64,000 nucleotides of DNA, taken from Folioceros fuciformis. Taxonomy: Eukaryota. Below the pieces are notes generated by a model. It searched no databases. It was given only the letters and a program-made list of their open reading frames with translations, and was not told the origin of the DNA. Below, piece after piece: positions 3,601 to 50,480 of the stretch. Each line of letters begins with the position of its first letter. Within the stretch, counting starts at the first letter, position 1. Both the position numbers and the translations under genes were made by a program. The DNA lies in the NCBI GenBank assembly GCA_049999805.1, contig JBNGIO010006373.1, positions 217,172-281,171 on the forward strand. Reading direction: 5' to 3'.

Positions 3601-6600
3601 ACTATTATTTTAAGAAGTGAAAGGAGATGAAGAAGAAAGGAGAGGGAAAACAATTCCTGCGAACCGAACAAAAAGCATGCGTCCATGGCGCATACATTCC
3701 ATGTCCTGTTCGGATGTGAAGAAGAGATAATGGAATTTTCACACACCTGAAGTATACCCAGAATTCCTGCACGTCTGAAGATACTCCAGCTGAAAATGCG
3801 AGGAGGTGCAATCCAAAATGGGATGATTATAAGCACAAGCCACAGAAAGGCGAGGAGGCAATTCAGAAGGAATACCCATCGCAGGAATTCGAAAGTCAGC
3901 ATGATAGCAGAACCAAAGTGGCCTTCGATAATTCGGAGATGCTCCACCCACAGACCAGAACTCTCGTGGGTTGCCTGAGGGAGAACATTCAGCTTTAGAC
4001 AACACACATTTTAGGTGCCAGATGTGCAACAAGCTCAAAGGAGTCGAGTATGGACCCCTATCGTATCTCGATAACGTTGCGACACACGCTGGAGCCAGTG
4101 ATTGAGACGGGAAGCAATGCCGGCCTTTTCTACTTCCTTCTTCCCCTCATTCTCCTCTTTTAGACGGCTCTGAAGAATCTGAATCCTTTCTTTGGCCTTC
4201 TGGATAGGAACCAATGCCTGGGGATGAAACCAGAATCCGTCATCACCACCCACCCAGAGAACTTGGACATTGCAAGCCAGCACCATGGTGTTGAGAGTGT
4301 GACTAGCAGAAGGCTATTACTCAACGAAATGGTCTACAGAAAAGGTGTTTTCTTTCAGCTGACGTTGCATACACATCCATGCCTTTATGCGGAGTTTGTC
4401 CAAAGATTGCTCCGAAAGCTTGCATTGTATCCTCTGCAGTTCAGGATACTCTGCGTAATTTGTTGGCCTCCATCTCCTCAGATCCTTCACGGCATATGGG
4501 TCAGATAATTGCCTATCATAGGTAATGGGATGTTCATCACTGATGCGTTCTTTGTCTTCCTCACCTCGCAGCTTGCCAACCTCTGACGTACTTAGGAGTT
4601 GCTGGCCAAGCGGCCAAAGACTGCTGGTTTCGGCCGTAGCGTCAGAGATCGGAACATCGCCCACGTTGTCTCGAGGTGGCCACGACTGTAGATTAGCACC
4701 CTCGTTGCTTGGAAGCAAACTTGAATGTCTCGGACTTGAGTGCAGTCCGCTTGCTTCCGGTCGTAAGTATCCCATCGTCCTGGAGTCGGGTTGGTCTGGG
4801 GGTTCAGTTTCGTTCAAAGGAGCATCACCCAGTTTACCACCTGGTGACCATGATGAGAAACGACTATCCACTCTATCTAAGAGCAAACTTGAGTGACGCG
4901 GAATTTGTCCTGAGAAATGCAGCGCGCTTTGTTCTGCCCCCAGGTGGCTCATGTTCTCGAAGTCAGGTTGGGTCGTGGAGGAATCTCGATCCAGAGGAGC
5001 ATCACCCAACTCGTCTCCATGTGACCACAATTGTGAACCATCACCCAGACTGCTGGGGAACAATCTTAACTGTTCAGCACTTTGCCTTGGAAAATGTCGA
5101 GTCCTTTGGACATTGGGATTGTCAAAGCCATGAAAATCAAGAGTTGGAGAGCCTTGCTCGGAATCGATCTGTGTTGGTGAAGGGACCCTACCAACAAAAT
5201 CTTGAGAGGACGAGGCGGAAGTGAGTCGAAAGGCTTTCTCAGGAACAAAAGGAGGCGGAGTGTGGGTGCCGTTAGCACCGTGGTCAAGTGATGCAGGAAC
5301 ACGGGACGAAGCTCTATGTGGAACTGTTTGGGATAGGCGGAAAGAAAGGGAAGAAGGACTGATGGAAGCATGGTCAGTACTCTGCGAGGCAAGGCCAGGT
5401 GAAGTAGGAGAAAGTGGAGAACCTCTCGCTGAACCTGTTTGTGATGGTCGAAACGAAGTTGTTGAGAAACTGATGTGAGCATGGTGAGTACCTTGCGAGG
5501 CAAGGCCAGGTGAAACAGGGGAAAGTGAAGAACCTCTTGCTGAACCTGTTTGGGATGGTCGAAAGGAAGCTGTTGAGAAACTGATGGGAGCATGGTCAGT
5601 ACCGTGAGAGGCAAGACCAGGTGAAGTAGGGGAAAGTGAAGAACCTCTCGGTGAACCTGTTTGGGATGGTCGAAAGGAAGCTGCTGAGAAGCTTATGGGA
5701 GCATTGTCGGTACCCTGCCAGGTAAGGCCTGGTGAATAAGGAGCATGTGAAGAACCTCTTGGTGAACCTGTTTGGGACGGTCCAAAGGAAGCTGTTGAGA
5801 AATTGACGGGAGCCTGGTCAGTGTCGTGGCATCTCTGAAATGAAGCAGCAAGTTGAGGAGGTCGAAACCCTTGCTGAGATGAAGGATTAACAGCTGCAGT
5901 AGGCGGCTGGTATACTCGGAAAGAGCGGAACCCTTGCTGGAAGGGAGAGTTTCCGGACTGATCAATTCCATCAGCTTGACACTGTTGGGGAGGTCGGAAT
6001 CCTGGTTCGGGAGGGGAGGTCGAAGAGTGAGTTATCCCAGCAGCTGGTTGAAATGCCTGGCGTGGTCGGACCCCTCCTCCTTGCAAGGAAGACTTTGCAG
6101 ACAAACTAGTACCAGCAACTGCTTGAACTTGTTGAGAAGGGCGGAACCCTAGGTGGAAGGGAGAAGTTGTGGACCGGCTGTTTAAATCTCCAGGAGCTCC
6201 TGAAAATTGTTGGGATGGGCAGAATCCTTCTTGGAAGGGAGAGTCTTCAGTCTGTGTCGATGCAGCAGCACCTTCAACCTGTTGGGATAGGCGAAACCCT
6301 ACTTGGAAGCGAGAGCTGTTAGTCTGCGTGGTTCCACCAACCGCTTGAAACTGTTGGGGTGGGCGAAACCCTCCTTCAATCTGGGCAGGACTATCCAAAG
6401 AATTGGCTTCCTCCAAAGACTCTGCAGAGCTCTTATGATCAAAAGCCGGCGGAAATAAATCCTGTCCTACTGAAACCCTGTGCCGGAGACTTGCAAGATC
6501 CAATGGCATTGGCCTGGGTGGCTCCATGGGAATCCATCTGGGTACCACCTTCTCAATCTGGATCTTTGTAGGGCGCCTTCTGCCTCCGTCACCGCCTGTT

Positions 6601-6611
6601 GACAAGGCCAT
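688..6611 (-). CDS. TMC: Transmembrane channel-like (TMC) family protein, multi-exon, with a long repetitive low-complexity N-terminus; 3' end approximate
   Basis: Minus-strand exon peptides match TMC family motifs: WVEHLRIIEGHFGSAIMLTFEFLRWVFLLN (~3860-3955), LLYGGY...YPLAV (~3450-3540), FTSWDFHI (~3215-3250), CMENAIGKQLLRLLLTN (~1955-2010), VVYNQALIWVGSCFSPAAPFL (~1710-1780), CGP (~1395). The large first coding exon lies in ORF 4317-6629; ATG at 6611 follows a tgcag acceptor-like site. Confidence 0.8.
5330..5830 (-). repeat. Coding tandem repeat, 111-bp (37-aa) unit, about 4.5 copies, within the TMC N-terminal exon
   Basis: gcgaggcaaggccaggtgaa-like motif at 5384, 5495, 5606 and 5717 (spacing 111); peptide unit TDHAPISFSTASFRPSQTGSxRGSSLSPxSPGLASQG. 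Confidence 0.9.
5850..6375 (-). repeat. Degenerate coding repeat GFRPxQQ, about 24-aa spacing, about 8 copies
   Basis: GFRPPQQ, GFRLSQQ, GFCPSQQ, GFRPSQQ, GVRPRQA, GFRPPQQ, GFRSFRV and GFRPPQL occur successively in ORF 4317-6629. Confidence 0.8.
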
Positions 6612-6859
6612 CCTCCAATGCCTGCACATGCATAATTGGCACCACCATCTATATGCATCACCACAGAATTGTCATTCTGTGGGCACATTCTCTGTGGCAA
6701 TCGGCCTTCCCACCAACAGAGACCTTCCCTTCCAAGGGAATGGCATATCAAGTAGCAAGTAGCTGATGTGAAATACTCCAGACTTTGCTGGCCGAGAAGC
6801 CCAAGCCTCACGCATGGCACCTCCTTACACATTCACCAAACTTCAAGAAAAGCAAGACT

Positions 6860-6989: not shown

Positions 6990-9900
6990 ATGGCCACAGC
7001 ATGGCAGCCAGACCAGTTGTGGGTCCAAGAAACTGCTGTGTGTGCAGGGATTCTGCGAGGAGCTCCTGCCCTCCTCGTCTTGGGAAGTGAACTGCTACCA
7101 AATCGAGCCTCCAGGTTCAGGAGTGTAAGGATCCCAGCACTTCCACCTTTGACAAAGTTTGTGGGTGGGGACGGGCTCTGCACAGATGGTGGCTGCCAGG
7201 AGCAGTTGTGGCAACAGCCCACCGTGTGGTGGGGCAGCAGACGAGATGAGGAGGGCTCGCCGGGGAAGGGGTCCTGGGAGGTGGGGCTCTGGGTCAAGCC
7301 AGAGTCGGGTGATGAGAAGGTCGTTTCTTTGGATATGCACATGGGTCGTGGTGCCTCTCCTTGCGAGTCCTTTTCTGGGGGTGAGACCGGATCCGGGAGG
7401 GGTGAGGAGTCGGAAGTGGGGGACAAGTGGAGTAGTGTGAGGAGCCCGGTGCTTGCAGTTCCGGGGAAATGTGTGGGCGGGGACGGGGTTTCTGACGATG
7501 GCCGTCGCCTCAAACAGCAGGAACAGGAGCAGATGTGGGAGCAGTTTTTCCTGGATCCTTCAATGTGGTGGGACAGGAGAGGAGGTAAGAAGAGCTCCCG
7601 GTCGCCTGATTTCCGGCGCAAGGGGTCCGGAGAGGTCCTGTGGTTAAACAGCATGTTCAAGCCAGCGTGGGTTGATGAGAAACTTGTTTCTTTGGATTTT
7701 CGGATGGGTGGTCATGGGGTGTCTCCTTCCAAGGCGAGCTCTCCGGGTGACTGGGGAGGTGGCAGGCGTGCAGGATCGGAAATGGGTGTCGTGACGGCTG
7801 TGAATGTGATGGCGTTTTGTCAGCAGGGGAGGCTGGTTGAGGCCGTTGGAGCCCTGGAATGTCTTGCGCACACGGACTTTTCTGTTTCTCAGTCTCTGTT
7901 CTACACTGTGCTGAAATTGTGTACGGCTAAGAAGGATTTGGTTATGGGGCGACGAGTTCATGACCTCACTGTGAAAGTAGGGTACGAGTCGGATGCATAC
8001 TTGGGGAACCATATCTTGCGCATGTATGCATGTGGAGGTAGTCTGCAAGAGGCCATGGGCGTGTTCTCCAGGGTGGCCAAACCAACTGCCTTCATGTGGT
8101 CCTCCATTATCTCCGCATATGCTAAGCATGGGAAGCCTAAGGAGGCCATACAACTCTACCATGAGATGCGCAGGTCAGGGGTGAAGGCGGATGCTCACGT
8201 CTTTGTAGCTGCCCTTCAAGCTTGTGCATTTGCCTTCGATTTGGAATCTGGCAGAGAAGTGCACAGTGACGTGTTGCACAGCGGAATTCCTGCTAACTTG
8301 TTCGTTGCCAACTGCCTGGTGGACATGTATGCAAAATGTGGCAAACTGGAAGATGCACGCCAGGTTTTTGACAGCATGGCCTCGAAGGATGTGGTGACAT
8401 GGAATGCCCTGATAGCTGGGTATGCGCAGCAAGGGTTGGGACACGAGACACTGCTTGTGTATGGACAAATGGAGCAGGAGGGCCCGCTTTTGGCCAACCA
8501 TGTTACTTTTGCTTCCCTCCTGAAGGCCTGTGCGAGCGTAGGTGCCTTACAGAAGGGCAGGGAGCTGCACTCACAGATTGTGGAAAGAGGACTGCTGGAT
8601 GACGTAGTGTTGGGCAACTGCCTGGTGGACATGTATGCAAAATGTGGTGAACTGGATAATGCGCGCCAGGTTTTTGACAGCATGGCCACAAGGGATGTGG
8701 TGACGTGTAACGCCCTGATTGCTGGGTATGCCCAGCAAGGGCTCGGACATGAGGCACTTGTTGTGTACGAACAAATGGAGCAGGAGGGCCTGCTTTTGGC
8801 TGACGATGTTACTTTTGCTTGCCTTCTCAAGGCCTGTGCGGGCACTGGTGCGTTACAGAAGGGCAGGGAGCTGCACTCACAGATTGTCAAAAGAGGATGG
8901 GTGGATGACGTAGTGTTGGGGAATTGCCTGGTGGACATGTATGCAAAATGTGGTGAATTGGGAGAAGCACACCAGGTTTTTGACAGCTTGGCCACCAAGG
9001 ATGTGGTGACATGGACTGCGCTGATTGCTGGGTATGCACAGCAAGGGCTTGGACATGAGGCACTTGTGTTGTACGGGCAAATGGAGCAGGAGGGCCTGCT
9101 GTCGGCTAATCACGTTACTTTTGCTTGCCTTCTGAAGGCCTGTGCAAGCACTGGTGCCTTACAAAAGGGCAGGCAGCTGCACTCACTGATTGCTAGAAGA
9201 GGACTGCTGGATAATGTAGTAGTGGGCACCTGCCTGGTGGACATGTACGCAAAGTGTGGTGAACTGGAAGATGCACGACAGGTTTTTGACAGTTTGGCTA
9301 CAAAGAATGTGGTGACATGGAATGCCCTGATTGCTGGGTATGCACAGCAAGGATACGGCCAAGAGGCACTTGTCGTGTATGCACAAATGGAGGAGGCAGG
9401 CCTCATCTTGGCCGATGGTGTTACGTTTGCGTGCCTTCTGAAGGCCTGTGGAATCGCTGGTGCCTTACAGAAGGGCAGGCAGCTGCACTCACTGATAGTC
9501 GAAAGAGGACTGCTGGATGACGGAATGGTGGGTACCTGCCTGGTGGACATGTATGCAAAGTGTGGCGAACTGGAAGATGCACGCCAGGTTTTTGACAGCT
9601 TGGGCACAAAGAATTTGGTGACGTGGACCTCCTTGATCGCTGGATATGTACAGCAAGGACTCGGCCTAGAAGCGCTTGTTGTGTATGGACAAATGCAGGA
9701 GGCGGGCCTCATTTTGGCTGATGAGGTGACTTTTGCCTGTCTCCTGAAGGCCTGTGCGAGCACTAGAGCTTTACAGGAGGGCAGGCAGCTGCACTTGCAG
9801 ATTGTCGACAGAGGACTCCTGGATGACGTTGTGGTGGGCACCTGCCTGGTGGACATGTATGCAAAATGCGGTGAACTGGAAGATGCACGCCAGGTTTTCG

Positions 9901-11141
9901 ACAGCTTGGCCACGAAGAATGTCGTGACATGGAATGCCCTGATTGCTGGGTATGCTCAGCAAGGACTCAGCCTCGAGGCGCTTGTAGTGTATGGAGAAAT
10001 GGAGGAGTCGGGCCTCATTTTGGCTGACGATGTTACTTTTGCTTGCATTCTGAAGGCCTGTGGAAGCAGTGGTGCCTTGCAGAAGGGCAGACAGCTGCAC
10101 TCAGAGATCGTCGAAAGAGGACTGCTGGATAACGTAGTGTTGGGCACCTGCGTGGTGGACATGTATGCAAAATGTGGTGAACTGGAAAAGGCTCGCCAGG
10201 TTTTTGACAGCATGAACACAAAGAATGTGGTGACATGGACCGCCCTGATATCTGGCTATGGTACCTGTGATGAAGGTCGCAAAGCACTAGCTTGTTTTGA
10301 GGAGATGTTAGTAGTCGGTATTCAGCCTCACGAGGCCACTTTTACCTGCCTCTTAGCAGCATGCAGTCACGAGGGCCTGGTCTCCGAAGGTCGCAAGCAC
10401 TTCGATTCCATGGCCGAACAGCATGGTATCAAACCTACTCTTGAGCATCACAATTGCATGATTGATCTTCTTGGTCGTGCAGGCCATTTGGATGAGGCTG
10501 AGAAGATGCTATTGTCGTGTGAGGACCAACGTAATGTGGTGGGCTTGACAACTCTGTTGAATGCCTGCAAAAGTCACGGGGATATAGAGAGGGCCGTGTG
10601 GTGTTTTGAAAGAATTGTTAGGCTGGACCCCCACAGGGCGTCTGCGTATGTGCTCATGGCCAATGCCTACGCAGATGCAGGTCGGTGGAGCGACGTAGAC
10701 AGAATTGAAACACAGAGAATTTTAGCAGGGGCTCACAAGAAGCCTGCAGTTGCGACCATTGAGGTGAACAAGCAGGTAGAGAGGTTTCTGGTGGGAGAAA
10801 GGAGAGAGGATATTGCGTCGAAGGCAGAGAGCACGAACGCGCGTCTGAAGCAGGAAGGAGGCCACGTACCTCACACAAAGCTGGTGTTGAAGCCACTGGG
10901 CGAGAAGGAAAAGGAAGATGCGCTTTGTGGACATGCTGAGAAACTGGCTCTTGCGTATGGCCTCTTGAACACTCCGAGTGGGACACCTCTGGTGGTAACG
11001 AAGAATCTACGAATGTGCAGTGACTGCCACAGCTCCACGGAGATCATGTCAAGGCTTGAGCGGAGAGACATCGTTGTCAGGGATGGGTACCGGGTCCATC
11101 GATTCGCGGCTGGTTGTTGCAGCTGTAAGGGTCGACCGTAA
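6990..11141 (+). CDS. PLS-class PPR protein with E1-E2 and DYW:KP (GRP-ending) deaminase-type domain; candidate U-to-C organellar RNA editing factor; N-terminal OSB-PDF-like module
   Basis: Intronless 1383-aa ORF with repeated P (VVTWNALIAGYAQQG), L (VTFACLLKAC) and S (CLVDMYAKCG) motifs, then P2-L2-S2, E1 and E2. C-terminal domain has KKPAVATIEV, HAEKLA, KNLRMCSDCH and ends CSCKGRP. Confidence 0.95.
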   Translation: MATAWQPDQLWVQETAVCAGILRGAPALLVLGSELLPNRASRFRSVRIPALPPLTKFVGGDGLCTDGGCQEQLWQQPTVWWGSRRDEEGSPGKGSWEVGLWVKPESGDEKVVSLDMHMGRGASPCESFSGGETGSGRGEESEVGDKWSSVRSPVLAVPGKCVGGDGVSDDGRRLKQQEQEQMWEQFFLDPSMWWDRRGGKKSSRSPDFRRKGSGEVLWLNSMFKPAWVDEKLVSLDFRMGGHGVSPSKASSPGDWGGGRRAGSEMGVVTAVNVMAFCQQGRLVEAVGALECLAHTDFSVSQSLFYTVLKLCTAKKDLVMGRRVHDLTVKVGYESDAYLGNHILRMYACGGSLQEAMGVFSRVAKPTAFMWSSIISAYAKHGKPKEAIQLYHEMRRSGVKADAHVFVAALQACAFAFDLESGREVHSDVLHSGIPANLFVANCLVDMYAKCGKLEDARQVFDSMASKDVVTWNALIAGYAQQGLGHETLLVYGQMEQEGPLLANHVTFASLLKACASVGALQKGRELHSQIVERGLLDDVVLGNCLVDMYAKCGELDNARQVFDSMATRDVVTCNALIAGYAQQGLGHEALVVYEQMEQEGLLLADDVTFACLLKACAGTGALQKGRELHSQIVKRGWVDDVVLGNCLVDMYAKCGELGEAHQVFDSLATKDVVTWTALIAGYAQQGLGHEALVLYGQMEQEGLLSANHVTFACLLKACASTGALQKGRQLHSLIARRGLLDNVVVGTCLVDMYAKCGELEDARQVFDSLATKNVVTWNALIAGYAQQGYGQEALVVYAQMEEAGLILADGVTFACLLKACGIAGALQKGRQLHSLIVERGLLDDGMVGTCLVDMYAKCGELEDARQVFDSLGTKNLVTWTSLIAGYVQQGLGLEALVVYGQMQEAGLILADEVTFACLLKACASTRALQEGRQLHLQIVDRGLLDDVVVGTCLVDMYAKCGELEDARQVFDSLATKNVVTWNALIAGYAQQGLSLEALVVYGEMEESGLILADDVTFACILKACGSSGALQKGRQLHSEIVERGLLDNVVLGTCVVDMYAKCGELEKARQVFDSMNTKNVVTWTALISGYGTCDEGRKALACFEEMLVVGIQPHEATFTCLLAACSHEGLVSEGRKHFDSMAEQHGIKPTLEHHNCMIDLLGRAGHLDEAEKMLLSCEDQRNVVGLTTLLNACKSHGDIERAVWCFERIVRLDPHRASAYVLMANAYADAGRWSDVDRIETQRILAGAHKKPAVATIEVNKQVERFLVGERREDIASKAESTNARLKQEGGHVPHTKLVLKPLGEKEKEDALCGHAEKLALAYGLLNTPSGTPLVVTKNLRMCSDCHSSTEIMSRLERRDIVVRDGYRVHRFAAGCCSCKGRP
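8290..10240 (+). repeat. Highly similar 306-bp (102-aa P-L-S triplet) tandem units in PPR gene 1
   Basis: gtggacatgtatgcaaaatgtgg-like motif recurs every 306 bp (about 8318, 8624, 8930 and onward). Confidence 0.9.
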
Positions 11142-11784: not shown

Positions 11785-13803
11785 CTACCTTCGTTCTGTC
11801 TTGCCTGTTGACCGCTTGCCAGAAAACAGATGTTTCGGTTTGGGGTTGTACACGACTCTATCACCTTCACCCTTCCTGGCATCCTTGTTTCTCTGCTTGT
11901 GAGCCTTCCTGGCCAGCTTTATGGCCTTGGTCTTCTGAGCAGTGTCCTTGAAGCCCTCTCCAGGCTGGGCCTCAAAAACAGGACGTGAGCGAGATCTGGA
12001 CCTTGTCTTCAGTCTCTTGCTAGGCTGATCGATGTCCATGGCATCCACATCCTCGGTAGCCGTACTCACTGACCTATCTCTCTTCCTTCCTCTCCTGGAG
12101 ACAGACCTACTTCGAGCTCTCTCAATGGCCGCACTTGGATCTAAGCCTAGGGAGCGAAGGTGTCTCCCCATTTTGTCAGTGGACAACAGACCATCTCGAT
12201 CTGCTGTCCTTGGCAGTACAGGCCTGCTGTGACCTACAGTTTTCTTTGATCTATGCTCCAATAGCAACTGCTTCTTCCTCCTCCGAATCGCTGCAAGAGC
12301 CTTCTTCTCCTCTTCGGTGAGTTCTTCTCCATCTTCCATGTCCTCATCTTCACCCTCAGCTGCCTCACGGGCAGCCTCTTCCCGCTCCAACTCATCGAGC
12401 CTCTGCAGGATGTCAGCATCCACAAAGTCTGCAATGTTATGACCATCAACGATCTCAGGCACGATGTCATCCTTCCAGCTGTCATCCAGCAGCAAGTAGT
12501 GCTTGTGGAGATTGGCAGAATACACTCCAGCACCACCATGCTTGTTCTCCAGGTCCCTTTCGAGTACTCTGCCTTGAGATACAGATACACCTTTAGCCTG
12601 TGCGTCCAGCACAGCCTGCGGAATGCAAGGTGGTCGATCCTTCGCATCTCTCGCCTTTGGCATTGCCACATGGATCCTATTCAAACAATCATTCATTTTC
12701 TTCGATTTCATCTTCACCTCCACTCTTTGCTGAAGCAAACGCTCACATGCTGCATTTTTTACTGCTATCACCCCCTCCTCTGTCAGGGTGCTCATGGTCA
12801 TCAAACAACCCTCCTCGTCCAGAGAGCTAGAGTCAGCAAACACCCCTGCCGAACACCTAGCAGCCTCCCTCCTCATGTCACCAAGAAGCTGCCTCTCATC
12901 CTCAGACAGCATCTCCAAGGGCTGCAAGTCGATCTTGTTGCAGGCAACCAACACAGGTTTGTTGGCAAACAAGGGCTTGATGCTGTGGAACAGAGCAGCC
13001 TGCTGTGCTAGAGAATATCCACATGCCCCAGACAGATCACAAACAAAAAGCACAGCCGCACGGAGATGGGCAAGTGCAGTCACACTCAGCATTTCGATGG
13101 TATTACGGTCCTCCAGCGGATGATCCAGAATGCCAGGGGTATCAATCACCTGCCATCTCAGATATTTATAATCCGTGTGACCTACAAACAGGGATTTAGT
13201 GGTAAATGCATACGGCTGCACATCAACATCGGCCCTCGTTATCTTGTTGATGAAGGAACTCTTCCCCACGTTCGGATATCCACATATGAGAATAGTCCTC
13301 GTGTTAGGGTCAATGGAAGGGAGCCGTGACATATGCTGCCTAACCTGCTCCAGGTAGGCCAGACTAGGGCCAATCCTCTTCATCAGCGTGCACATCCTTC
13401 CCAACGCTGCCTTCTTCAGCTGCTTGCACCGGTACAACGAATCTCCATACTTCAGCAGGCGGACATAATCCTTGGCAATCTTCTCCACCAAATTCCGAGC
13501 AGTGTTCACTTGCGCCAGAGCAAGCTTATAGTGATCTTTATCATACAAGACGTTCAACAGATCACCATAGAAAGGATGGATGTCATCAAGGCGGGGGAAG
13601 TCGTCTATGATGGTGCTCAGCTTGTCATGAAAGGTCTGCTGAGTGAACTTCACCTTGCGCATGTAGAATTGACGGATGCGATTGATCGCGTAACCTTTGT
13701 GCACCACCGTTGGTGTCTGCCGCTGGGTCCGGGAGAGCACGATGTCCACAAAATCCTTGCCCGTGGGTACCACCGTGATCTTCTTGAAGTTGTAGAGCAC
13801 CAT
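11785..13803 (-). CDS. NOG1: Nucleolar GTP-binding protein 1 (NOG1/GTPBP4), intronless
   Basis: 672-aa ORF starting MVLYNFKKITVVP; LSRTQRQTPTVVHKGY; G1 GYPNVGKSS, G2 QPYAFTT, G3 DTPG, G4 NKID; C-terminal NOGCT-type end PKHLFSGKRSTGKTERR. Confidence 0.97.
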   Translation of the reverse strand: MVLYNFKKITVVPTGKDFVDIVLSRTQRQTPTVVHKGYAINRIRQFYMRKVKFTQQTFHDKLSTIIDDFPRLDDIHPFYGDLLNVLYDKDHYKLALAQVNTARNLVEKIAKDYVRLLKYGDSLYRCKQLKKAALGRMCTLMKRIGPSLAYLEQVRQHMSRLPSIDPNTRTILICGYPNVGKSSFINKITRADVDVQPYAFTTKSLFVGHTDYKYLRWQVIDTPGILDHPLEDRNTIEMLSVTALAHLRAAVLFVCDLSGACGYSLAQQAALFHSIKPLFANKPVLVACNKIDLQPLEMLSEDERQLLGDMRREAARCSAGVFADSSSLDEEGCLMTMSTLTEEGVIAVKNAACERLLQQRVEVKMKSKKMNDCLNRIHVAMPKARDAKDRPPCIPQAVLDAQAKGVSVSQGRVLERDLENKHGGAGVYSANLHKHYLLLDDSWKDDIVPEIVDGHNIADFVDADILQRLDELEREEAAREAAEGEDEDMEDGEELTEEEKKALAAIRRRKKQLLLEHRSKKTVGHSRPVLPRTADRDGLLSTDKMGRHLRSLGLDPSAAIERARSRSVSRRGRKRDRSVSTATEDVDAMDIDQPSKRLKTRSRSRSRPVFEAQPGEGFKDTAQKTKAIKLARKAHKQRNKDARKGEGDRVVYNPKPKHLFSGKRSTGKTERR

Positions 13804-14337: not shown

Positions 14338-17300
14338 ATGGAAACTATATGGCAACCGGATCCGTTGTCTATCCAACAAATTCCGTGTACTGGGATGCTA
14401 GGACGAGCTCCCGCTCACCTTGCCGTGTATTGTCAGCCGTTGGGAAGTCACCAAGCGTCCAGGTGCAGCAGTGTAAGGAATGTGGAGCGATTTTCCAGCG
14501 ATTCTGACCCCCAGTCTCAAGCCCTGGAGGAGGAGCTACTGTGGCGACAGTTTTTTCTGGACCCTGCCATGTGGTGGGATAACAGGCGAGGTAAGGATAG
14601 CTCGTCTTCGCCGCACTTCCGGCGGAAGGGGTCCCGCCAGGTCCTCTGGGTAAACAGCATTTTCAAGCCAGCTTGGGTGGAGGAACAGCTCGTTTCTTTG
14701 GATATGCACATGAGTCATACTGCCTCTCTTTCGAAGTCCAGCTCTCCGGACTATGGTAGGCTTGCAGGGTCGTCGGAAGTCGGGGTGGTAACGCCTGTAA
14801 CCGTGAGCAATTTTTGTCAACAGGAGAACCTTGCTGAGGCCGTGGGAGCGCTGGAGTCTCTTGCGCACACCAATTGTCATGTTTCTCAGTCTCTCTTGTA
14901 TACTGTCGTAAGGCTATGTGCGGCGAAGAAGGATCTGGTGGCGGGGCGACGAGTGCATCATCTCGTAGTTAAACTTGGGCGCGAGTCCGATGCGTACTTG
15001 GGGAACAATATCTTGCGCATGTATGCGGGTGGAGGGAGGCTCGATGAGGCGATGGATGTGTTCACCAGAGTGGGGAAGCCGAATGCCTTCATCTGGTGTT
15101 CCATAATCTCCGCCCATGCTAAACATGGGAAACCTAAGGAGGCCATACAACTGTACCATGAGATGCGTCGCTCAGGTGTGAAGGCGGATGCTCACGTGTT
15201 TGTAGCAGCCCTTCAGGCCTGTGCTTTTGCTGCCGACTTGGAATCCGGCAGAAAAGTGCACTATGATGTGGTGCACAACGGCGTCCCTCCTAACTTGTTT
15301 GTTGGCAACTGCCTGGTGGACATGTACGCGAAATGTGGCGAACTGAAAGATGCACGCAGGGTTTTTGACAGCTTGGCCACAAAGGATGTGGTGACATGGA
15401 CGTCCCTGATTGCTGGGTATGCAAATCATGGGNNNNNNNNNNATGTGGTGACATGGACGTCCCTGATTGCTGGGTATGCAAATCATGGGCTTGGCCACGA
15501 GGCGCTTGTCCTGTACGACCAAATGGAACAGGACGGCTTCATTGTGGGTAATCATATCACTTATGCTTGCCTCCTGAAGGCCTGTGCAAGCACTGGTGCG
15601 TTGCAGAAGGGCAGGGAGTTGCACTCACAGGTTGCAGCAAGAGGACTTTTAGATAGCATGCTTGTGGGCAACTGCCTGGTGGACATGTATGCAAAGTGTG
15701 GTGAAGTGGAAGATGCGCGCACGGTTTTTGACAACTTGGCCACGAAGGACGTGGTGACTTGGAATGCCTTGATTGCTGGGTATGCACAACAAGGGCTTGG
15801 CCAAGAGGCGCTTTCTCTGTATGGGCAAATGCAGAAGGAAGGCCTAGTTGTGGAGAGCTGTGTTACTTTTGCTTGCCTTCTGAAGGCTTGTGCAAGTGCT
15901 GGTGCCTTACAAAAGGGGAGACAACTGCATTCTCATATTGTGGAGAGAGGGCAGCTAGACAACATTATCGTGGGCAACTCCCTGGTGGACATGTATGCAA
16001 AATGTGGCGAACTAGAAGCCGCACGCCAGGTTTTTGACAGTTTGACCACAAAGGATGTTGTGACATGGAATACTCTGATTGCAGGGTACGCACAGCTAGG
16101 GCTGGACCAGCAGGCGCTTCTTTTGTATGACCAGATGCAGCAGGAGGGCCTGGTTGCGGGTAACCATGTTACCTTTGCTTGCCTTCTGAAGGCTATTGCA
16201 AGTGCTGGTGCCATACGGAAGGGGAGGCAACTTCATTCTCACATTGTTGAAAGAGGACAGCAGGATAACATACTTGTGGGGAACTGCCTTGTGGATATGT
16301 ATGTAAAATGTGGCCAAATGGAAGATGCACGCCAGGTTTTTGACCACTTGGGGACAAGGGATGTAGTGACATGGACCGCCATGATTGCTGGGTATGCAAG
16401 TCATGGACTTGGCCAAGAGGCGCTTCTCCTTTATGCTCAAATGGAGCAGGAAGGCTTTGTTGTGGGTAACCATGTCACTTTCGCTTGCCTTCTGAAGGCG
16501 TGTGCAAGCGCTGGTGCATTACAGATGGGCAGGCAGCTGCACTTACAGATCGTGGCAAGGGGAGGACAACTAGATGACATTCTCGTAGGCAATTGCCTTG
16601 TGGACATGTATGCAAAGTGTGGTGAAGTTGAAGAGGCACGTCGGGTCTTTGATAGCTTGGCCACAAAGGACGTGGTGACATGGAATTCCATGATTTCTGG
16701 ATATGTACAACAAGGTTTGGGCCAAGAGGCGCTTTTTCTGAGTGAGCAAATGGAGCAGGAGGGCCAGATTGTGGGGAACGACTTTACTTTTGCTTGCCTT
16801 CTGAAGGCCTGTGCAAGCTCAGGTTCCTTACAGATGGGCAAGCAGCTGCACTCAAGGATTGTGGAAAGAGGACAGTTAGATAACGTAATTGTGGGCAACT
16901 GCCTGGTGGACATGTATGCAAAATGTGGCGAACTGGAAGATGCACGCCGGGTTTTTGACAGTTTGACAACAAAGGATGTGGTGACATGGAATGCCCTGAT
17001 CGCCGGGTGTGGTACTTGTGATGAAGGTGATCACGCTTTAGCTTGTTTTGAGGAAATGTTGAACGCAGGTATTCAGCCCAGTGATGCTACTTTTACTTGC
17101 CTCTTGGCAGCATGCAGTCACTCGGGACTGGTGAATGAGGGTCGAAAGCACTTTGATTCTATGGTGGAGCGTGGCATTAGACCTACTATTGAGCATTACA
17201 ATTGTATGATTGATCTTTTTGGGCGTGCAGGCTATTTGGATGAAGCAGAGAACATGTTATTATTATGTGAGAGCCAAGGCAATGTTGTTGGGTTGACGTC

Positions 17301-17889
17301 TTTACTGAATTCCTGCAGAAGGCATGGGGATGTATTGAGGGCGACTCGGTGTTTTGAGAGTCTGATTAGACTGGAGCCTCAGGATGCATCTGCATATGTG
17401 CTGATGGCCCATGCCTATGCAGATGCAGGTAGGTGGACCGATGCAGGGAGGATTGAAAAACAGAGAATGGTAGTAGGGGCCATAAAAAAACCTGCCGTGG
17501 CAGGTATTGAGGTGGAGAAGCAGGTACACACTTTTGTGGTGGGAGAAAACAGAGGTGATATTGCATTCAAGGTAGAGAGCGTGAATGCACGACTGACGCA
17601 GGAAGGGGGTCACGTACCACACACAAAGTTGGTCCTGAAGCCTCTCTCTGAGAAGGAAAAAGAAGATGCACTTTGTGGGCACGCCGAGAAGCTAGCTCTA
17701 GCTTTTGGTCTCTTGAACACTCCGAGTGGTACTCCTCTGGTGGTAACGAAGAATCTACGCATGTGCAGCGACTGCCACAGCTCTACTGCGATATTGTCAA
17801 GGGTTGAACAGAGAGACATTGTTGTAAGAGATGGGTTCCGGGTCCATCGATTTGCAGCTGGATCTTGCAGTTGTAAGGGTCGACCGTGA
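14338..17889 (+). CDS. Second PLS-class PPR DYW:KP (GRP-ending) protein, paralog of 6990-11141; spans a 10-N gap
   Basis: 1183-aa ORF with PLS triplets, P2-L2-S2-E1-E2, KKPAVAGIEV, HAEKLA, CSDCH and ending CSCKGRP. N-terminus has WRQFFLDPAMWWDNRRGKDSSSSPHFRRKGSRQVLWV. Confidence 0.93.
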   Translation: METIWQPDPLSIQQIPCTGMLGRAPAHLAVYCQPLGSHQASRCSSVRNVERFSSDSDPQSQALEEELLWRQFFLDPAMWWDNRRGKDSSSSPHFRRKGSRQVLWVNSIFKPAWVEEQLVSLDMHMSHTASLSKSSSPDYGRLAGSSEVGVVTPVTVSNFCQQENLAEAVGALESLAHTNCHVSQSLLYTVVRLCAAKKDLVAGRRVHHLVVKLGRESDAYLGNNILRMYAGGGRLDEAMDVFTRVGKPNAFIWCSIISAHAKHGKPKEAIQLYHEMRRSGVKADAHVFVAALQACAFAADLESGRKVHYDVVHNGVPPNLFVGNCLVDMYAKCGELKDARRVFDSLATKDVVTWTSLIAGYANHGXXXXVVTWTSLIAGYANHGLGHEALVLYDQMEQDGFIVGNHITYACLLKACASTGALQKGRELHSQVAARGLLDSMLVGNCLVDMYAKCGEVEDARTVFDNLATKDVVTWNALIAGYAQQGLGQEALSLYGQMQKEGLVVESCVTFACLLKACASAGALQKGRQLHSHIVERGQLDNIIVGNSLVDMYAKCGELEAARQVFDSLTTKDVVTWNTLIAGYAQLGLDQQALLLYDQMQQEGLVAGNHVTFACLLKAIASAGAIRKGRQLHSHIVERGQQDNILVGNCLVDMYVKCGQMEDARQVFDHLGTRDVVTWTAMIAGYASHGLGQEALLLYAQMEQEGFVVGNHVTFACLLKACASAGALQMGRQLHLQIVARGGQLDDILVGNCLVDMYAKCGEVEEARRVFDSLATKDVVTWNSMISGYVQQGLGQEALFLSEQMEQEGQIVGNDFTFACLLKACASSGSLQMGKQLHSRIVERGQLDNVIVGNCLVDMYAKCGELEDARRVFDSLTTKDVVTWNALIAGCGTCDEGDHALACFEEMLNAGIQPSDATFTCLLAACSHSGLVNEGRKHFDSMVERGIRPTIEHYNCMIDLFGRAGYLDEAENMLLLCESQGNVVGLTSLLNSCRRHGDVLRATRCFESLIRLEPQDASAYVLMAHAYADAGRWTDAGRIEKQRMVVGAIKKPAVAGIEVEKQVHTFVVGENRGDIAFKVESVNARLTQEGGHVPHTKLVLKPLSEKEKEDALCGHAEKLALAFGLLNTPSGTPLVVTKNLRMCSDCHSSTAILSRVEQRDIVVRDGFRVHRFAAGSCSCKGRP
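15433..15442. other. Assembly gap (10 N) flanked by an identical 47-bp duplication
   Basis: atgtggtgacatggacgtccctgattgctgggtatgcaaatcatggg occurs at 15386-15432 and again at 15443-15489. Confidence 0.95.
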
Positions 17890-18420: not shown

Positions 18421-21400
18421 ATGGAGGAATCGTTGAAGACGTTTGATGTTCACGACGCTGTGAGGAGACTGGGGGCACGCCATCCCGCTCTTCTCACCTG
18501 NNNNNNNNNNNNNNNNNNNNNNNNNNNNNNNNNNNNNNNNNNNNNNNNNNNNNNNNNNNNNNNNNNNNNNNNNNNNNNNNNNNNNNNNNNNNNNNNNNNN
18601 TTTGATTCTCTAGTACGTGGTTGCAGGGAGGGGCAGGGGGTCGAGGAGCCTCGACTGGTTGCAGTTCTGGAACGCTTGCTGCTAGACCCGCAATTCACAG
18701 TCGCTGTGGTGGGCTGTTTCCGGCCAATTGTTCCGAGGATTGTGGATGAGCTCATACGGTCTCTGGACGACGGACGAAGGGAAGGGCAAGCTGAGTTCGC
18801 CACCCATGCCACCTCTAGTTCGCCAAATGGGTCGACGTGGGGCTTAAGTCGCCATGAGTATGCGGTCATGGCTTTGAGCCGGACTTTGGAGCTGGCTCCG
18901 CATGTGCTGAGGTGAGCCGTGGGAATTCGGTGGGAATTGGGTGACAGGCGGTCCGAGGATTACTGATTTAGTTGGGGGGATTTTTGGCAGTGCGGTGTTG
19001 CAGTACTTTCAGTTTTCCCCTCCTCCTTTTGAACGTCTTCTGCGTGGGGGTGCCCCTGGGAGTCCCGTCTCAGGAGCTTGTTCGGATGCAATGGTAGGCT
19101 CCATGACGGGGATGGCTGTGTTGAGGCTAATTCTTCTTCGTATGCGGACTGCCTGACCCTGTGCCGGATGGTGTTCAGGAAGCACCGCCTCTACTGGACG
19201 TCCTTCGTGCGTCGTACCGGTTGCTGCTCTTGGAGCCCTGCATTTTCCGTGACAAGTGGGACTGGAGCTCCTTTCTGGAGCTCTTGCACTGGGATGGAGG
19301 CGACAGTCAGCTTCGAGCGGATGTTCGGTGGTGTGCCACGCAAGTGGTGTCCATTGTGCTGAGGATGAGCGATATTGCAAGGCAGAAATTATGCGTTCAG
19401 ATCGCCGAGCTGGATGAAGAGACGGCTGTTGCATGTTTGTTCAGGTTCGTTGTTGATTGGTGTGGCGGGAAATGGTGGTGCAGCTGATTACTGTATATGG
19501 GGAGTGGCCGTTAGTATCGATATCTGTTTGTGGTACGTATCACAGAAAAGCACAGCCATCTCAATCTGTCGCCTTTGTGTTCTGAATTGGGCAGGTGGGA
19601 AGAATATTGTCAAGATGTAGCTGTTGAGAAGGCTGGGATGTACATGGAGCGTGACCTTGTACAAGGTGTCCGAAAAGTCAGTTTGCAAGATGAACCCACG
19701 AAGGTGGGACTGACAGCAAAGTTTAGGGATGGAAACTTCTCGAAAGTTGAAATTTGTGGCATTGAGCTCCCAAGGAAGCAGTGTTCAAGTTTGGGGTAAA
19801 GCTTCAATGGAGAACCAACTTGTAGTAGTGTCAATTGTCACCGGGCTGAGTTTTGTTCATTGGTGGAGGCTTACTCGTTGACCATTGCACGCAGGGTAGA
19901 GCCTCAAAACGGCTTGTTTGTTATGACTTCAACAGCCAGGAGTAGCCTGGAAGCTGTTGTACTGGCATTGAGCCAAAAGTTGCCAATTCTTCTGGAGGGA
20001 CCAGTGGGCGCTGGAAAGTCGTCACTGGTCCAGGAGGTGGCTCGCCTTACAGGCAATTTAGGTTTCTTACTAAAACTTCACTCACTGTAAGCTTGTCCTG
20101 TTCAAGTCCAGGATAACTTAGAGAGTCTCCATTAAGCATTCACACGTTTGCATGCTGTTAATTAGATATATTATTCATCCATTTGGATGATCAGATGGAT
20201 AGCAAGACCTTGCTGGGGAGCTATATGTGCACAGACACTCCCGGCGAGTTCCAGTGGCAGCCAGGCGCCCTGACGCAAGTATGATTCTATCCCTGGTTGT
20301 GAAGATCCCTTAATGGGGAGTCGAAAACCAGCTTTTTTGTGTCCGCTTCTGACCAACTGGCATGACAGGCTGTCACCAGAGGATTGTGGGTCGTGTTCGA
20401 GAACATTGACAGAGCTCCTTCTGAGATCTTGTCTGCACTGACACCATTATTAGAGGATGGGAAACTGTACATTGCAGGAAGAGGAGAGGTACGCTGGTTA
20501 CATCTCGTTGCTGCCCATTTGGCTGCTGCCCTGCAGGTCTTGTGCAGTGGTGTATCTATGCGGTATCCGAAGAGCTGAGAATTGTATCTCCCGCCGATGC
20601 AGGTTATCCAGGCTGTTGAGAATTTTAGGCTCTTTTCAACAGTGACAAGTTTGGATTCTGCTCAAAGATTAAGTTGGGGAGGTACATGCATGTTTCTTGT
20701 AGTTTATCAGGATGGTTGTGCTATCATGAATCATCTCATATGTTCAATGTGTCGTGGTGCAGGTGGCCACATGTTGAGTAGTCTGTGGCGAAGAGTGGTT
20801 CTTGACTCGCCGAAAGATGAAGAGCTGGCCCTGATTCTTGAAGGACGCTTTCCAAGACTGGGGCTCTTGGTCACCAGGCTGAAAGGTCTGTAGGTGGACG
20901 CATTTCAGGTTCCAGCATTGGCCTGAACTGCACGCACTTTCCTGTGGCTTCTGTTAACCTCTCTAGGTGGCATCTTAGGTACTATGGAGAAGTTGCAGTC
21001 AGCAGATAAGTTAAGTGGAAGGCCAATACACTTTGGTCATCCATTTTCAACCAGGTAATGGCATTTGTGTACCTTTCTCTTGGTGGCAGATTTGTTTCCA
21101 TGCATAGAGGGTTGATTGTTGAAACTTTACAGCGATGTCTGTATTGGCGACTGATCATATCTGTATTGTAACAGGGATCTCATTAAGTGGTGTTATAGGT
21201 TGTCTTCTTTTGTGCCTGAAACTCCTGCCAGTCTCTGCTTGCCCGAGTCTTTGCTGGAACGTGTTTATGTGGAGGTACACGCTTCTGCTACTTGTGCAAC
21301 AATTGTGATTGGAGTGTAGGTGCCTTGACAAAGCGTTGGTTCTATACACAGTTTGTTCGTCGATTTTCAATGCCTCATGGTCGCCCTTGTCTCTTATTTG

Positions 21401-24400
21401 CTGGTGCAGGCTGTCGACGTCTTCGCTTCTGCAATTCCAAATGGAGCTGATAGGCACCGTGTGCTGGGGACTCTTGCTGCTCAATGGGACATTTCGCCTG
21501 AGAAAGTTAAGTTCTACAGTCAGTTGAACAAGCCCAAGCAGCAGGTATGTTGCATGACTTGTGGCCTCTTCTTGCACTATCCAGTAGTAAGTATTTTTTG
21601 GCCCTGACAAAGGACTGTGGGGTTCAGATCTCACTGCAAGCTTTCACTGTTGGCAGGGCTACTGTACGAGCTCGTTCAAAGCAGGTTTCTGAGGTCTCGT
21701 CTTGTTGTATTAAGCTCCCTAGAACATCACGCGTTTGTCCACTTCCTGCTGTGTTAGCTGGCTATTTTCTTACGTGTAGACGTGGTTGCAGAGAAAGGCG
21801 ACAGCAGGTCGTGTTTTTGCTAACACAGGCCATGCCATGCGGATGCTTGAGTCCATAGCAGCATGCGTGCAGCATGGAGAACCTGTGTTGTTGGTCGGTG
21901 AGACTGGTACTGGGAAGACAACCCTAGTGCAGCACTTAGCCCGTCAAATCTCTATGCCTTTGGTTGTTCTTGTAAGTTGTCCTTCCTTTGATCGGCTGAC
22001 ATTACGGAAAATTTTGCTCCCTTTCAAGCTGTTCATATCGTCCTGGTCCTGTCCGCAGAACATGAGTCAGCAAAGCGACAGCACAGATTTCTTAGGAGGA
22101 TTCAAGCCAGTGGATGCTCAAAGGATATGTGCCCCACTCTTTGAGATGTTCAATCATTTATTCCAGCTGACGTACTCAGCAAAGGTCCGTCTCCTTCAAT
22201 TGCTGATTGTTCTCTTGTGCCCACCCTTGGTTTGTGCTGATGGTCTTTGAACCCCAGGAAAATTTCGCCTTTTTGAGACGTGTAAGGCGGAATGTTGAGC
22301 ACAAGCAGTGGGACGAACTTTTGGAAGCCTTTCGTCGTACAGCTGAGAAAATTTTGTCTGGGCCCCCGTGTCCTGCTGGACATGTGGATAGTGCTCAGCT
22401 AGCAAAGCGAAAGAGGCCTGTTAGTGACAAGCTTGTTCGTGAGTGGGGTGCATTTGCAGTCAAAGTGCAGAAGGCAGAGAAGCAAGTTCTAGCTGCAAAA
22501 GCTGGTTTTGCCTTTGACTTTGTTGAGGGAGCTCTGGTGACAGCCCTCAAAGAGGGGCAGTGGCTACTCCTTGATGAAATTAATCTCGCGGCTGCTGATA
22601 CTCTGGAAAGACTTACTGGTGTATTGGACCAGAAGACCGGAACCCTCTCTCTTCCTGAGCGGGGTGATGTCGAGATCATTCCAAGGCATCCAGATTTTCA
22701 GATTTTCGCATGCATGAATCCAGCTACCGATGTGGGGAAGAGAGATCTACCTGTGGCTCTGAGAAGCCGGTTCACAGAGTTTTTTGTGGACGAGATGACA
22801 TCTAGGGAAGATCTGGAGGCTCTTGTATTTCAATATTTGGAAGGTGCTCTACCCTCTCCACCAGTGGGTGATGTTGTTGATTTCTACTTGAATGCCCGTG
22901 AAGAAGCTGATTGTCGATTATTGGATGGAGCTGGGCAGAAGCCGCAGTATAGCTTGCGCTCTCTTTCACGGGCGTTAGAGTACACTATAGCAGCTCTACC
23001 CATCTATGGTTTCAAGCGTGCATTGTATGATGGACTCTGCACGTCGTTTTTGACACTTTTGGATCAGAAAAGTACTGTGTTAATGGCCAATTTGATTGGG
23101 ATAGCTGCTTTCGGGCGGGCCAATAGCAGTTCATTGGGCCAGTTCCTTCTCAAGGTTCCACCCCAGCCAACTCCAGGTCATGTTTTATTTGAGCAGTTCT
23201 GGGTGGAACAAGGGGACACCAACCTCTCTGATGTTTCGCAGGATTTGCAAGGTCGATATGTGCTGACTAGAACCATACGTGAGCACCTAAAGAACTTGGC
23301 AAGAGCTGTGTTTGTCAGGAAGTACCCGGTCTTGTTGCAAGGTCCAACGTCAAGTGGGAAGACAAGTTTAGTCGAGTATCTTGCAGCAGTTACAGGGCAT
23401 CGGTTTGTGCGGATCAATAATCATGAGCATACTGATTTGCAGGAGTATCTAGGGACTTATGTCACAAGTCCAGCAGGCCAGTTAGTTTTCCAGGAGGGGA
23501 TCCTAGTAAAAGCTGTTCGACAAGGTCATTGGGTTGTGTTGGATGAGCTGAATCTGGCGCCCTCTGATGTGTTGGAGGCGTTGAACCGCCTGCTTGATGA
23601 TAACAGGGAGTTGTTTGTACCAGAGATTCAAGCAACGATCAAAGCACACCCTCAGTTTATGCTGTTTGCAACTCAGAATCCCCCTGGTATTTACAGTGGT
23701 CGCAAAATACTGTCCAGAGCATTTCGCAACAGATTCCTCGAGCTGCATGTTGATGATATACCAGATGATGAACTACAAGTGATACTGGAGAAAAGGTGCG
23801 CAATTCCTAGGAGCTACGCTGAGAAAATGGTCAACGTGATGAAGGACCTACAGAGGCATAGACAAAGCAGTCAAGTATTTGCTGGAAAGCATGGCTTTAT
23901 TACAGCTCGAGATCTGTTTAGATGGGCAGAAAGGTATGCAAGTGGCTATGAAGAGTTGGCCACCAATGGCTATATGCTTCTTGCGGAGCGTCTTCGGGAT
24001 GAGAGTGAGAAGGCTGTTGTTCAGGGTGCCTTAGAAAAGCACATGCGAGTGAGAATTGATGTTGAACATCTGCACGAGGTTGGGACCATCTTCCATTGTG
24101 CTTCCACAGGTTTTGGTGTTGCTCACTTCACTGGACAGAGTGATATAGCCTGTTTGTGTCCTGCTTTTCAGCTGACAAGCTCAGATGCATTCCAAGAGCT
24201 TCGACTGCACCTGGAGGCACCTGAGTCGGAAGCTCGTCTTGGGAAGTAAGTGATAAATTAACTAGAAGGGGTCATGCAAGAATGTGTTGTTTGATTGGCA
24301 TGCTTAGCTACATTGTTGTTGGTTGCTTTCCAGAATTGTATGGACAAATAGCATGAAGAGACTCTTTAATCTTGTGGAACGTGGCATACATCATGGCGAA

Positions 24401-49902: not shown

Positions 49903-50480
49903 TCCCGTTCGCCTGACCTCAGGCGTGGGGGATCCCGCAAGGTTATCTGGCTAGACAACTTGTTTAAGCCAGCTTGGATTGATGAGCAGCTCATTTCCTT
50001 GTAGTCCGACACGCAGATGGACCATGGTGCCTCTCCTTCCGAGTCCAGCTCCCCGGATAAGCTTGGATCTGGCAGGTGAGCTGGATCTGCACGCCAGGTT
50101 TTTCACAGCTTAGCCGCGAAGGACCTGGTTACATGGACAGTCCTGTTCGCTGGGTACGCACCGCAAGTTTGCTTCCCTTCTGAAGGCCTGTGCATGCAAT
50201 GGTTCCTGCGCCTCACAAAAGGGCAGGCAGCTGCACTCACAAATTATTGAAAGACGACTGCTGGATTACGCAGTGATGGCCTCTGTCTGGTGGACATGTA
50301 TGCGAAATGTGTTGAACTTGAAGATGCACGCAAGGTTTTTGACAGCATGGCGAAAAAAGGAAGTGGTCACATGGAATGCCCTGATTGCTGGCTATCCACA
50401 GCAAGGATTCGGCCGAGAGGCGCTTGTTGCGTATGGACAACTGGAGGAGGCGGGTCTCATTTCGGCTGACCGGATCACGC
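49903..50480 (+). pseudogene. Truncated, internally deleted pseudogene of the PDF-module PLS-PPR family
   Basis: Reads SRSPDLRRGGSRKVIWLDNLFKPAWIDEQLISL* (stop at 50002-50004), homologous to gene 1 at 7595-7695. It then jumps to PPR fragments (gcacgccaggtttttcacagc, gtggacatgtatgcgaaatg, WNALIAGYPQQG) with frameshifts; no DYW domain. Confidence 0.85.

Follow-up and report, generated by a model that had tools for sequence, protein, structure and literature searches.

An OSB-type PDF module at the N-terminus of a predicted PPR-DYW:KP editing factor of Folioceros fuciformis

Architecture of gene 1 and homology of its PDF module

A stretch of 64,000 nucleotides from Folioceros fuciformis (GenBank assembly GCA_049999805.1, contig JBNGIO010006373.1, positions 217,172 to 281,171 of the forward strand), referred to here as the window, contains a gene, gene 1, that joins a PDF module of the kind found in the plant organellar single-stranded DNA (ssDNA)-binding OSB proteins to a pentatricopeptide repeat (PPR) protein with a C-terminal DYW:KP domain. 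Gene 1 (P0001) is a single intronless open reading frame (ORF) of 1383 amino acids (aa) at 6990-11141 (+), and its first ATG is immediately preceded by a stop codon. The in-frame translation of 7533-7690 (+) is MWEQFFLDPSMWWDRRGGKKSSRSPDFRRKGSGEVLWLNSMFKPAWVDEKLV, which corresponds to aa 182-233 and matches exactly the peptide quoted in an earlier reading of the same DNA (the original prediction). The conserved PDF module is slightly longer (aa 176-240), and the previously reported span falls inside it. A leader comes first in the protein, followed by the PDF module, a PLS-type PPR array and an E motif; a DYW domain of 133 aa, which belongs to the KP/GRP type, forms the C-terminus. A tandem paralogue, gene 2, was found by scanning all six frames of the window with the PDF pattern, and Pfam returned the same PPR, E and DYW architecture for it. 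The features of the two genes are as follows.

6990..11141, + strand: gene 1, intronless ORF of 1383 aa; stop codon directly 5' of the ATG; Pfam PPR, E_motif and DYW_deaminase
6990..7130, + strand: N-terminal leader of gene 1 (aa 1-47), presumed organelle-targeting presequence; start common to gene 2
7515..7709, + strand: intact PDF module of gene 1 (aa 176-240)
7815..10739, + strand: PLS-type PPR array and E motif of gene 1, bounds approximate, from Pfam
10740..11138, + strand: DYW:KP deaminase domain of gene 1 (aa 1251-1383, 133 aa); KPAVATIEV box, HAEKLA, CSDCH, Lys88 and C-terminal GRP
14338..17889, + strand: gene 2 (P0003), tandem paralogue of the same architecture with one PDF module; six-frame motif scan and Pfam
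14518..14715, + strand: PDF module of gene 2, with PHF for PDF

Pfam identified 18 PPR stretches in gene 1 (PPR E 2e-134), an E_motif at aa 1196-1258 (E 1.2e-13) and a DYW_deaminase domain (PF14432) at aa 1291-1381 (E 5.3e-32), and found no family within the first 287 aa. The DYW domain carries KKPAVATIEV, in which KP replaces the PG of the PG box, and its zinc site reads GHAEKLA, with HAE for HSE; CSDCH is also present, and the protein ends in CSCKGRP, so that the terminal triplet is GRP and not DYW. Counted from KP, the domain is 133 aa long with lysine at residue 88, in gene 1 and gene 2 alike. The KP box, HAE and a C-terminal triplet other than DYW are marks of DYW:KP proteins, of which GRP is one of two hornwort variants (PMC9478123), and DYW:KP domains measure 132-133 aa with a conserved lysine at position 88 (PMC11845758). 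These marks by themselves point to a hornwort as the source of the window. By its domain content and signature residues, gene 1 is thus classed as a PLS-PPR editing factor of the DYW:KP GRP subgroup, and the PDF-PPR-DYW:KP architecture that had been proposed for it holds within one reading frame. In this literature, U-to-C editing activity is reported only for designer consensus KP proteins, not for gene 1 (PMC9478123).

OSB proteins carry the PDF motif, an element of about 50 aa that mediates ssDNA binding, once or repeatedly on the C-terminal side of their OB-like domain (PMC6963530, PMC4166229, PMC6451138 and PMC13393729, citing Zaegel 2006). The PDF motif of AtOSB1 is reported to be sufficient for ssDNA binding (PMC6963530, PMC6451138 and PMC4166229, all citing Zaegel 2006). 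With a profile made from both window copies, a HMMER search of 1.84 billion representative proteins gave 596 matches at E<=1e-3, of which 146 reached E<=1e-10 and 17 reached E<=1e-30. The architecture was classified for the best 150 of the 596 matches: 67 had OSB architecture (an OB/SSB-like domain followed by 1-11 PDF stretches), 16 were PPR proteins, and the other 67, comprising fragments, multi-repeat proteins and others, were left unclassified. The OB/SSB-like domain was counted with a local hidden Markov model (HMM) from five seeds, four of them above the Pfam SSB cut-off and P0046 at 22.4 bits against a cut-off of 26; Pfam SSB itself was above cut-off in 4 of 10 scanned proteins. Two source names pointed to OSB1 directly, namely that of P0114 from Drosera capensis ('OSB1, mitochondrial-like', E 4e-12) and that of P0215 in the P0108 cluster ('protein osb1 mitochondrial').

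A second HMM was built from the 154 PDF stretches of the 67 OSB-architecture proteins. It matched the gene 1 module with 73.8 bits over HMM positions 2-64 of 65, a score that is somewhat inflated because these proteins had first been retrieved by the window's own profile; the E-value was 5e-22 when the 1342 six-frame ORF pieces of the window served as the database, and 6.9e-16 at Z = 1.84 billion. The gene 2 module scored 63.5 bits. An alignment with the 24 PPR-linked copies and the 24 OSB-linked copies displayed was collinear along the whole motif, with W, FF, WWD-R, K, PDF-K/R-x-K and LW as the conserved positions, and gene 2 reads PHF at the place of the name-giving PDF. Given the margin, the inflation is immaterial, and homology of the window module to the OSB PDF motif is established at the sequence level, as the original prediction had proposed and as the OSB-only HMM, the alignment and the OSB1-named proteins of the reverse search all bear out. 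Neither the whole of P0001 nor its 287-aa N-terminus gave a Pfam SSB match. The gene 1 protein is therefore not an OSB: it lacks the OB-like domain and has only the PDF module in common with that family.

Other searches were less sensitive. Pfam assigned no family to the C-terminal PDF regions of the OSB-type matches, the PDF motif being without a Pfam model. Word-indexed protein searches, one using the N-terminal region as query and another comparing the motif with longer proteins, gave no match, which reflects their sensitivity limit, since the exhaustive HMMER search found hundreds. The ESM Atlas gave no usable match.

We considered whether the resemblance is fortuitous, or whether the segment lies untranslated upstream of a true start further downstream. 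Internal ATGs are present, for example at 7533, and would allow such a start. However, the E-value at a database size of 1.8 billion already refutes chance similarity, the frame is free of stops from 6990, the start and the module are conserved in gene 2 with mostly synonymous substitutions, and the transcript-derived ORFs P0081 and P0091 of Pteridium unite the motif and PPR repeats in one frame. We therefore regard this explanation as extremely improbable.

Constraint and predicted fold of the module

Ratios of nonsynonymous to synonymous substitution (dN/dS) between gene 1 and gene 2 were calculated by the Nei-Gojobori method. For the module, where they come from 53-64 codons of this single gene pair, dN/dS was 0.16 in the motif core (53 codons) and 0.21 with its extension. 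The leader and the linker behind the motif each gave 0.40, the PPR array gave 0.20-0.24, and the E motif plus DYW domain gave 0.18. The value of the module is close to that of the catalytic domain and far below that of the leader, and the module is therefore constrained as the DYW domain is, unlike a presequence. These results support the assignment of the PDF module to the mature protein, and not to a leader that is discarded.

AlphaFold2, run on the isolated 67 aa of the gene 1 module with a 39-row alignment, returned a confident model with a mean predicted local distance difference test score (pLDDT) of 91.7 and a predicted template modelling score (pTM) of 0.76. The predicted elements are a helix at residues 2-14, short strands at 19-21 and 34-36, and a helix at 53-66. 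A model of the first 321 aa of gene 2 (18-row alignment) showed disorder over residues 1-53 (pLDDT ~40), the same fold as the isolated module over residues 58-128 (pLDDT 85-96), a low-confidence linker at 129-152, and PPR helices from residue 153 (pLDDT 93-98); at a pTM of 0.56, the model does not fix how the domains are placed relative to each other. We are confident, on these models, that the module is predicted to fold autonomously. Solved structures gave no match to the module by sequence, and Foldseek on PDB structures gave none at E<=0.001, the best E being 4.6.

These data bear on the possibility that the module is a relic in the leader that has no function in the mature protein, being removed with the presequence or acting only within it. 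Removal with the transit peptide and the lack of a significant HMM match to OSB PDF motifs were among the outcomes that the original prediction had named as counting against it; as far as could be examined, neither is indicated, the HMM match being strong and the module evolving in the manner of the catalytic domain and not of the leader. Several observations fit such a relic: the N-terminal location is where presequences occur, gene 1 holds a decayed copy of the module and the window a pseudogene remnant (see below), and many relatives are without the module. However, the module has a dN/dS of the order of that of the catalytic domain and not of the leader, its predicted fold exceeds a pLDDT of 90 next to a disordered leader, and the fusion has been kept from the hornwort-type protein to ferns, lycophytes and Sphagnum. 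The module of gene 1 also begins only at aa 176, far past the usual length of presequences. We thus consider it improbable that the PDF module is such a relic.

Related copies in the window and in other plants

The two paralogues begin alike, with MATAWQPDQL in gene 1 and METIWQPDPL in gene 2. Between the shared start and the PDF module, gene 1 carries an insertion of ~120 aa relative to gene 2, within which lies a second, decayed copy of the module (copy A). Its three in-frame deletions of 12, 15 and 12 nucleotides cost it the FFLD, SPDFR and NSMF parts, and against the OSB-only HMM it scored -1.1 bits, which is not significant. A third member of the family was found as a remnant, consisting of the second half of a PDF module, SRSPDLRRGGSRKVIWLDNLFKPAWIDEQLISL, that ends in a stop codon. 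Decayed PPR-like sequence follows the stop, such as VTWTVLFAGYAP and QKGRQLHSQIIE in shifted or broken frames, and by this sequence the region 49903-50300 (+) is classed as a pseudogene remnant of the same PDF-PPR family.

7197..7370, + strand: copy A, decayed upstream duplicate of the PDF module in gene 1, with three in-frame deletions
49903..50001, + strand: third family member, a remnant; only the second half of the PDF module is left, closed by a stop codon; within the window, 17.7 bits and E 1.6e-4

Runs of N occur at 15433-15442 (10 N, inside the PPR array of gene 2) and at 18501-18600. The first is flanked by the duplicated peptide VVTWTSLIAGYANHG, which suggests an assembly join inside a repeat, and the repeat count of gene 2 is uncertain for this reason. 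Contigs from four sequencing runs were placed on the window at 80% likeness. They are dominated by paralogous PPR contigs and therefore say nothing about the expression of gene 1 or its transcript ends. Each run yielded 6-10 distinct contigs that resemble the motif region, contigs that differ from the window at 7544 or 7550 included, and three organism labels were represented. Contigs in all four runs joined 7370 to 7760, skipping 389 bases, as expected if single-module paralogues or alleles coexist with the duplicated form of gene 1.

The neighbouring sequence includes several further ORFs. Between the two PPR genes lies an intronless-looking ORF of 672 aa for the nucleolar GTP-binding protein NOG1 (11785-13803, -; Pfam NOG1_N E 1e-60, NOG1 and NOGCT). 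A midasin-like AAA ATPase with AAA_5 and midasin AAA lid domains has large exons at 22207-24249 (+) and probably reaches ~41779; a long acidic ORF at 39902-41779, with no Pfam match, may be the D/E-rich region of this gene. An ORF of 770 aa at 4317-6629 (-), divergently oriented to gene 1, is rich in Ser, Pro and Gln, contains internal repeats (...SFRPSQTGS.RGSS...) and matches no Pfam family.

All 16 PPR proteins among the best 150 of the 596 matches bear the motif at the N-terminus, some of them in two to three copies. Those with a named source come from the ferns Ceratopteris richardii, Adiantum capillus-veneris and Pteridium aquilinum (transcript-derived ORFs), from the lycophytes Diphasiastrum complanatum and Selaginella moellendorffii (the RefSeq 'At3g09040-like' PPR protein) and from the moss Sphagnum compactum; no seed plant is among the named PDF-PPR proteins of these 150. 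Their C-termini vary. P0074 is of the HAE/GRP type, Sphagnum P0142 is canonical with a PG box, HSE and a DYW end, Diphasiastrum P0133 ends after the E motif, Ceratopteris P0075 has a weak E motif, and Selaginella P0092 consists of PPR repeats only.

Relatives were also sampled by the DYW domain alone, giving 34 proteins of 760-2421 aa. The motif was present in only 2 of the 18 HAE-type proteins (P0180, ending GRP, and P0186, ending DRH) and in none of the 13 HSE-type and 3 other proteins, numbers that are too small for an association. Five HAE-type ORFs have nothing ahead of the PPR array and could be truncated, whereas at least five other HAE-type relatives without the module have motif-free leaders of 60-94 aa, and the HAE-type P0184 retains a degenerate trace, DPSQWWYNR. 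Judged from these sequences, the PDF module is optional within the KP family and not confined to it. The canonical Sphagnum protein and the proteins that end in an E motif or in PPR repeats argue against an exclusive tie of the module to DYW:KP. The link to reverse editing implied by the original prediction was thus not borne out.

Two matches stand apart from this distribution. P0008 and the members P0157-P0163 of its cluster, annotated as the dinoflagellate Effrenium voratum, contain up to nine PDF-like stretches (E 3.5e-56). The motif is described as conserved in green plants only (PMC4166229), and the Effrenium stretches could be either a real spread beyond green plants or assembly contamination. 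In P0007 from Kingdonia uniflora (1160 aa), 11-13 PDF stretches stand in tandem and an OB/SSB-like domain lies towards the C-terminus, at aa 935-1027; this protein model is either an extreme expansion of the PDF repeat or a fused gene model.

The origin of the PPR-linked copies was examined in a quick IQ-TREE tree built over 61 columns from 172 motif copies, of which 24 were PPR-linked and 148 OSB-linked, with P0007 left out. One clade, with a support of 96 in the Shimodaira-Hasegawa-like approximate likelihood ratio test, took in 14 of the 24 PPR-linked copies, including both window copies, P0180 (GRP), P0186 (DRH) and P0074 together with fern copies. The PPR label required 6 changes on the tree, against a mean of 22.8 after shuffling, and none of 500 shuffles came as low; the well-supported branches force only one change. 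A single clade of all 24 PPR-linked copies was not rejected by the approximately unbiased test (p 0.87), and the tree so constrained exceeded the unconstrained quick tree by 48.7 log-likelihood units. The PPR-linked copies therefore cluster, and the motif sequences are compatible with one old capture of the PDF module by a PLS-PPR gene, the few columns falling short of proof.

Possible function, and comparison with known systems

We think it somewhat probable that, as a whole, gene 1 encodes a PLS-PPR DYW:KP factor whose mature form retains a PDF domain from an old PPR-linked lineage and gains affinity for single-stranded nucleic acid from it. In this layout, a disordered leader would precede the PDF module, a flexible linker of ~25 aa would connect the module to the PPR array, and the E motif and DYW:KP domain would follow. 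By analogy with OSB1, we infer that the PPR-linked module may bind single strands, and it would then add sequence-independent affinity at the N-terminal end of the PPR tract, with specificity supplied by the array and catalysis by the DYW:KP domain. Since PPR arrays lie parallel to their RNA and the editing domain falls at the 3' end of the footprint, the module would come to sit on the 5' side. There it could help to capture the transcript or keep the target unfolded, raising local concentration or affinity. Alternatively, it could hold the factor on ssDNA or nascent RNA at the nucleoid. Tethering to the nucleoid and keeping RNA unfolded had both been suggested as possible roles in the original prediction.

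A number of points weigh against this interpretation. AtOSB1 and AtOSB2 are reported to prefer ssDNA over double-stranded DNA and RNA (PMC4166229), and for this reason a role on RNA is not taken as the default; the ligand may be RNA or ssDNA, and the module may affect editing. The module appears optional among the sequenced relatives, given its low frequency in the HAE-type sample and the motif-free leaders found there, and gene 1 tolerates a decayed extra copy. The inflated OSB-only score, the PHF of gene 2 and the narrow codon base of the module dN/dS count on the same side.

The main rival is that the module acts chiefly in protein-protein contact or localisation, docking on OSB proteins, on other PDF-bearing or nucleoid proteins, or on itself, without touching the substrate RNA. 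A compact, aromatic-rich domain on a flexible linker would suit this role, and its net charge is near zero (K+R to D+E 11/10 and 9/9 in the two window copies), which is atypical of a purely electrostatic nucleic-acid binder. OSB2 tetramers have been reported (PMC6963530), and the long tandem PDF arrays found elsewhere, of up to 13 stretches, resemble scaffolding repeats. However, ssDNA binding is the sole function reported for the motif in the accessible text of reviews citing Zaegel 2006, and the conserved aromatic and basic positions also suit base stacking on single strands. We consider such a docking role unlikely on balance, though to be taken seriously.

The reading of the module as a single-strand binder can be extended. 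PDF-PPR proteins may be an ancient land-plant class in which an OSB-derived module couples editing to the nucleoid, to ssDNA or to nascent transcripts, so that editing would be co-transcriptional; the class would have persisted in hornworts, Sphagnum, lycophytes and ferns, with no seed-plant member among the named proteins. We hold this extended proposal as speculative and rather doubtful. If true, the PDF module would be a missing accessory-factor principle in very heavily editing lineages, comparable to MORF/RIP in seed plants.

The searchable literature yielded no description that links the PDF motif or OSB proteins with PPR or DYW proteins, and an earlier mention in Zaegel 2006, Gerke 2020, Gutmann 2020 or their supplements is possible. 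The accessible text of a 2026 kingdom-wide survey of editing-factor domain fusions (PMC13386178) contains neither 'OSB' nor 'PDF', and that of a 2026 study of the OSB family (PMC13393729) does not contain 'PPR'. Within this literature, the earlier statement that the fusion is without a known functional description therefore stands. As far as could be searched, two known modules occur here in an undescribed architecture whose conservation extends over non-seed land plants.

The customary picture of a PPR editing factor comprises a targeting peptide, a PPR array and C-terminal E and DYW domains, and synthetic C-to-U and U-to-C editors have been designed accordingly. The PDF-PPR proteins would make up a class of natural editing factors that has been overlooked in non-seed plants for want of a Pfam model of the PDF motif. 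They link the RNA-editing machinery to a domain so far known only from proteins of organelle DNA maintenance. The module, of ~60 aa, is a candidate enhancer of affinity or processivity for designer PPR editors and, as a small domain without a solved relative, may interest structural biology. Should it do nothing, the fusion would be a mere curiosity of domain shuffling.

The gene 1 module shares with the OSB PDF motif a length of ~60 aa and the signature LW..FF.(N/D)P..WWD.R..K....PDF(K/R)(H/R)K....LW(L/I/V)..S..P.WV, and the profiles derived from the window and from OSB proteins retrieve each other at very low E. It differs in its setting: the OSB motif lies C-terminal to an OB/SSB-like domain, whereas the motif of gene 1 lies N-terminal to a PPR array in a protein without such a domain. 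The PPR-linked copies also cluster apart and tend to read KPxWVD, in contrast to NPxWVK in the OSB copies.

With the PPR-DYW:KP GRP proteins of hornworts (Gerke 2020 and Gutmann 2020, as cited in PMC9478123, which also gives the designers KP2 and KP3), gene 1 shares the PLS-PPR array, the E motif and a 133-aa DYW domain with the KP box, HAE, CxDCH, Lys88 and the GRP end. It differs from them in its N-terminal accessory domain, which is not described in the accessible text of PMC9478123, PMC11845758 and PMC13386178; the designer KP proteins begin with PPR motifs behind an artificial tag (PMC9478123). The RRM-PPR, MORF-PPR and RanBP2-Znf fusions (PMC13386178) are alike in that an extra nucleic-acid-binding or interaction domain is added to a PPR editing factor. 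The domains added in those fusions are defined in Pfam, whereas the PDF motif, added here at the N-terminus, has no Pfam model.

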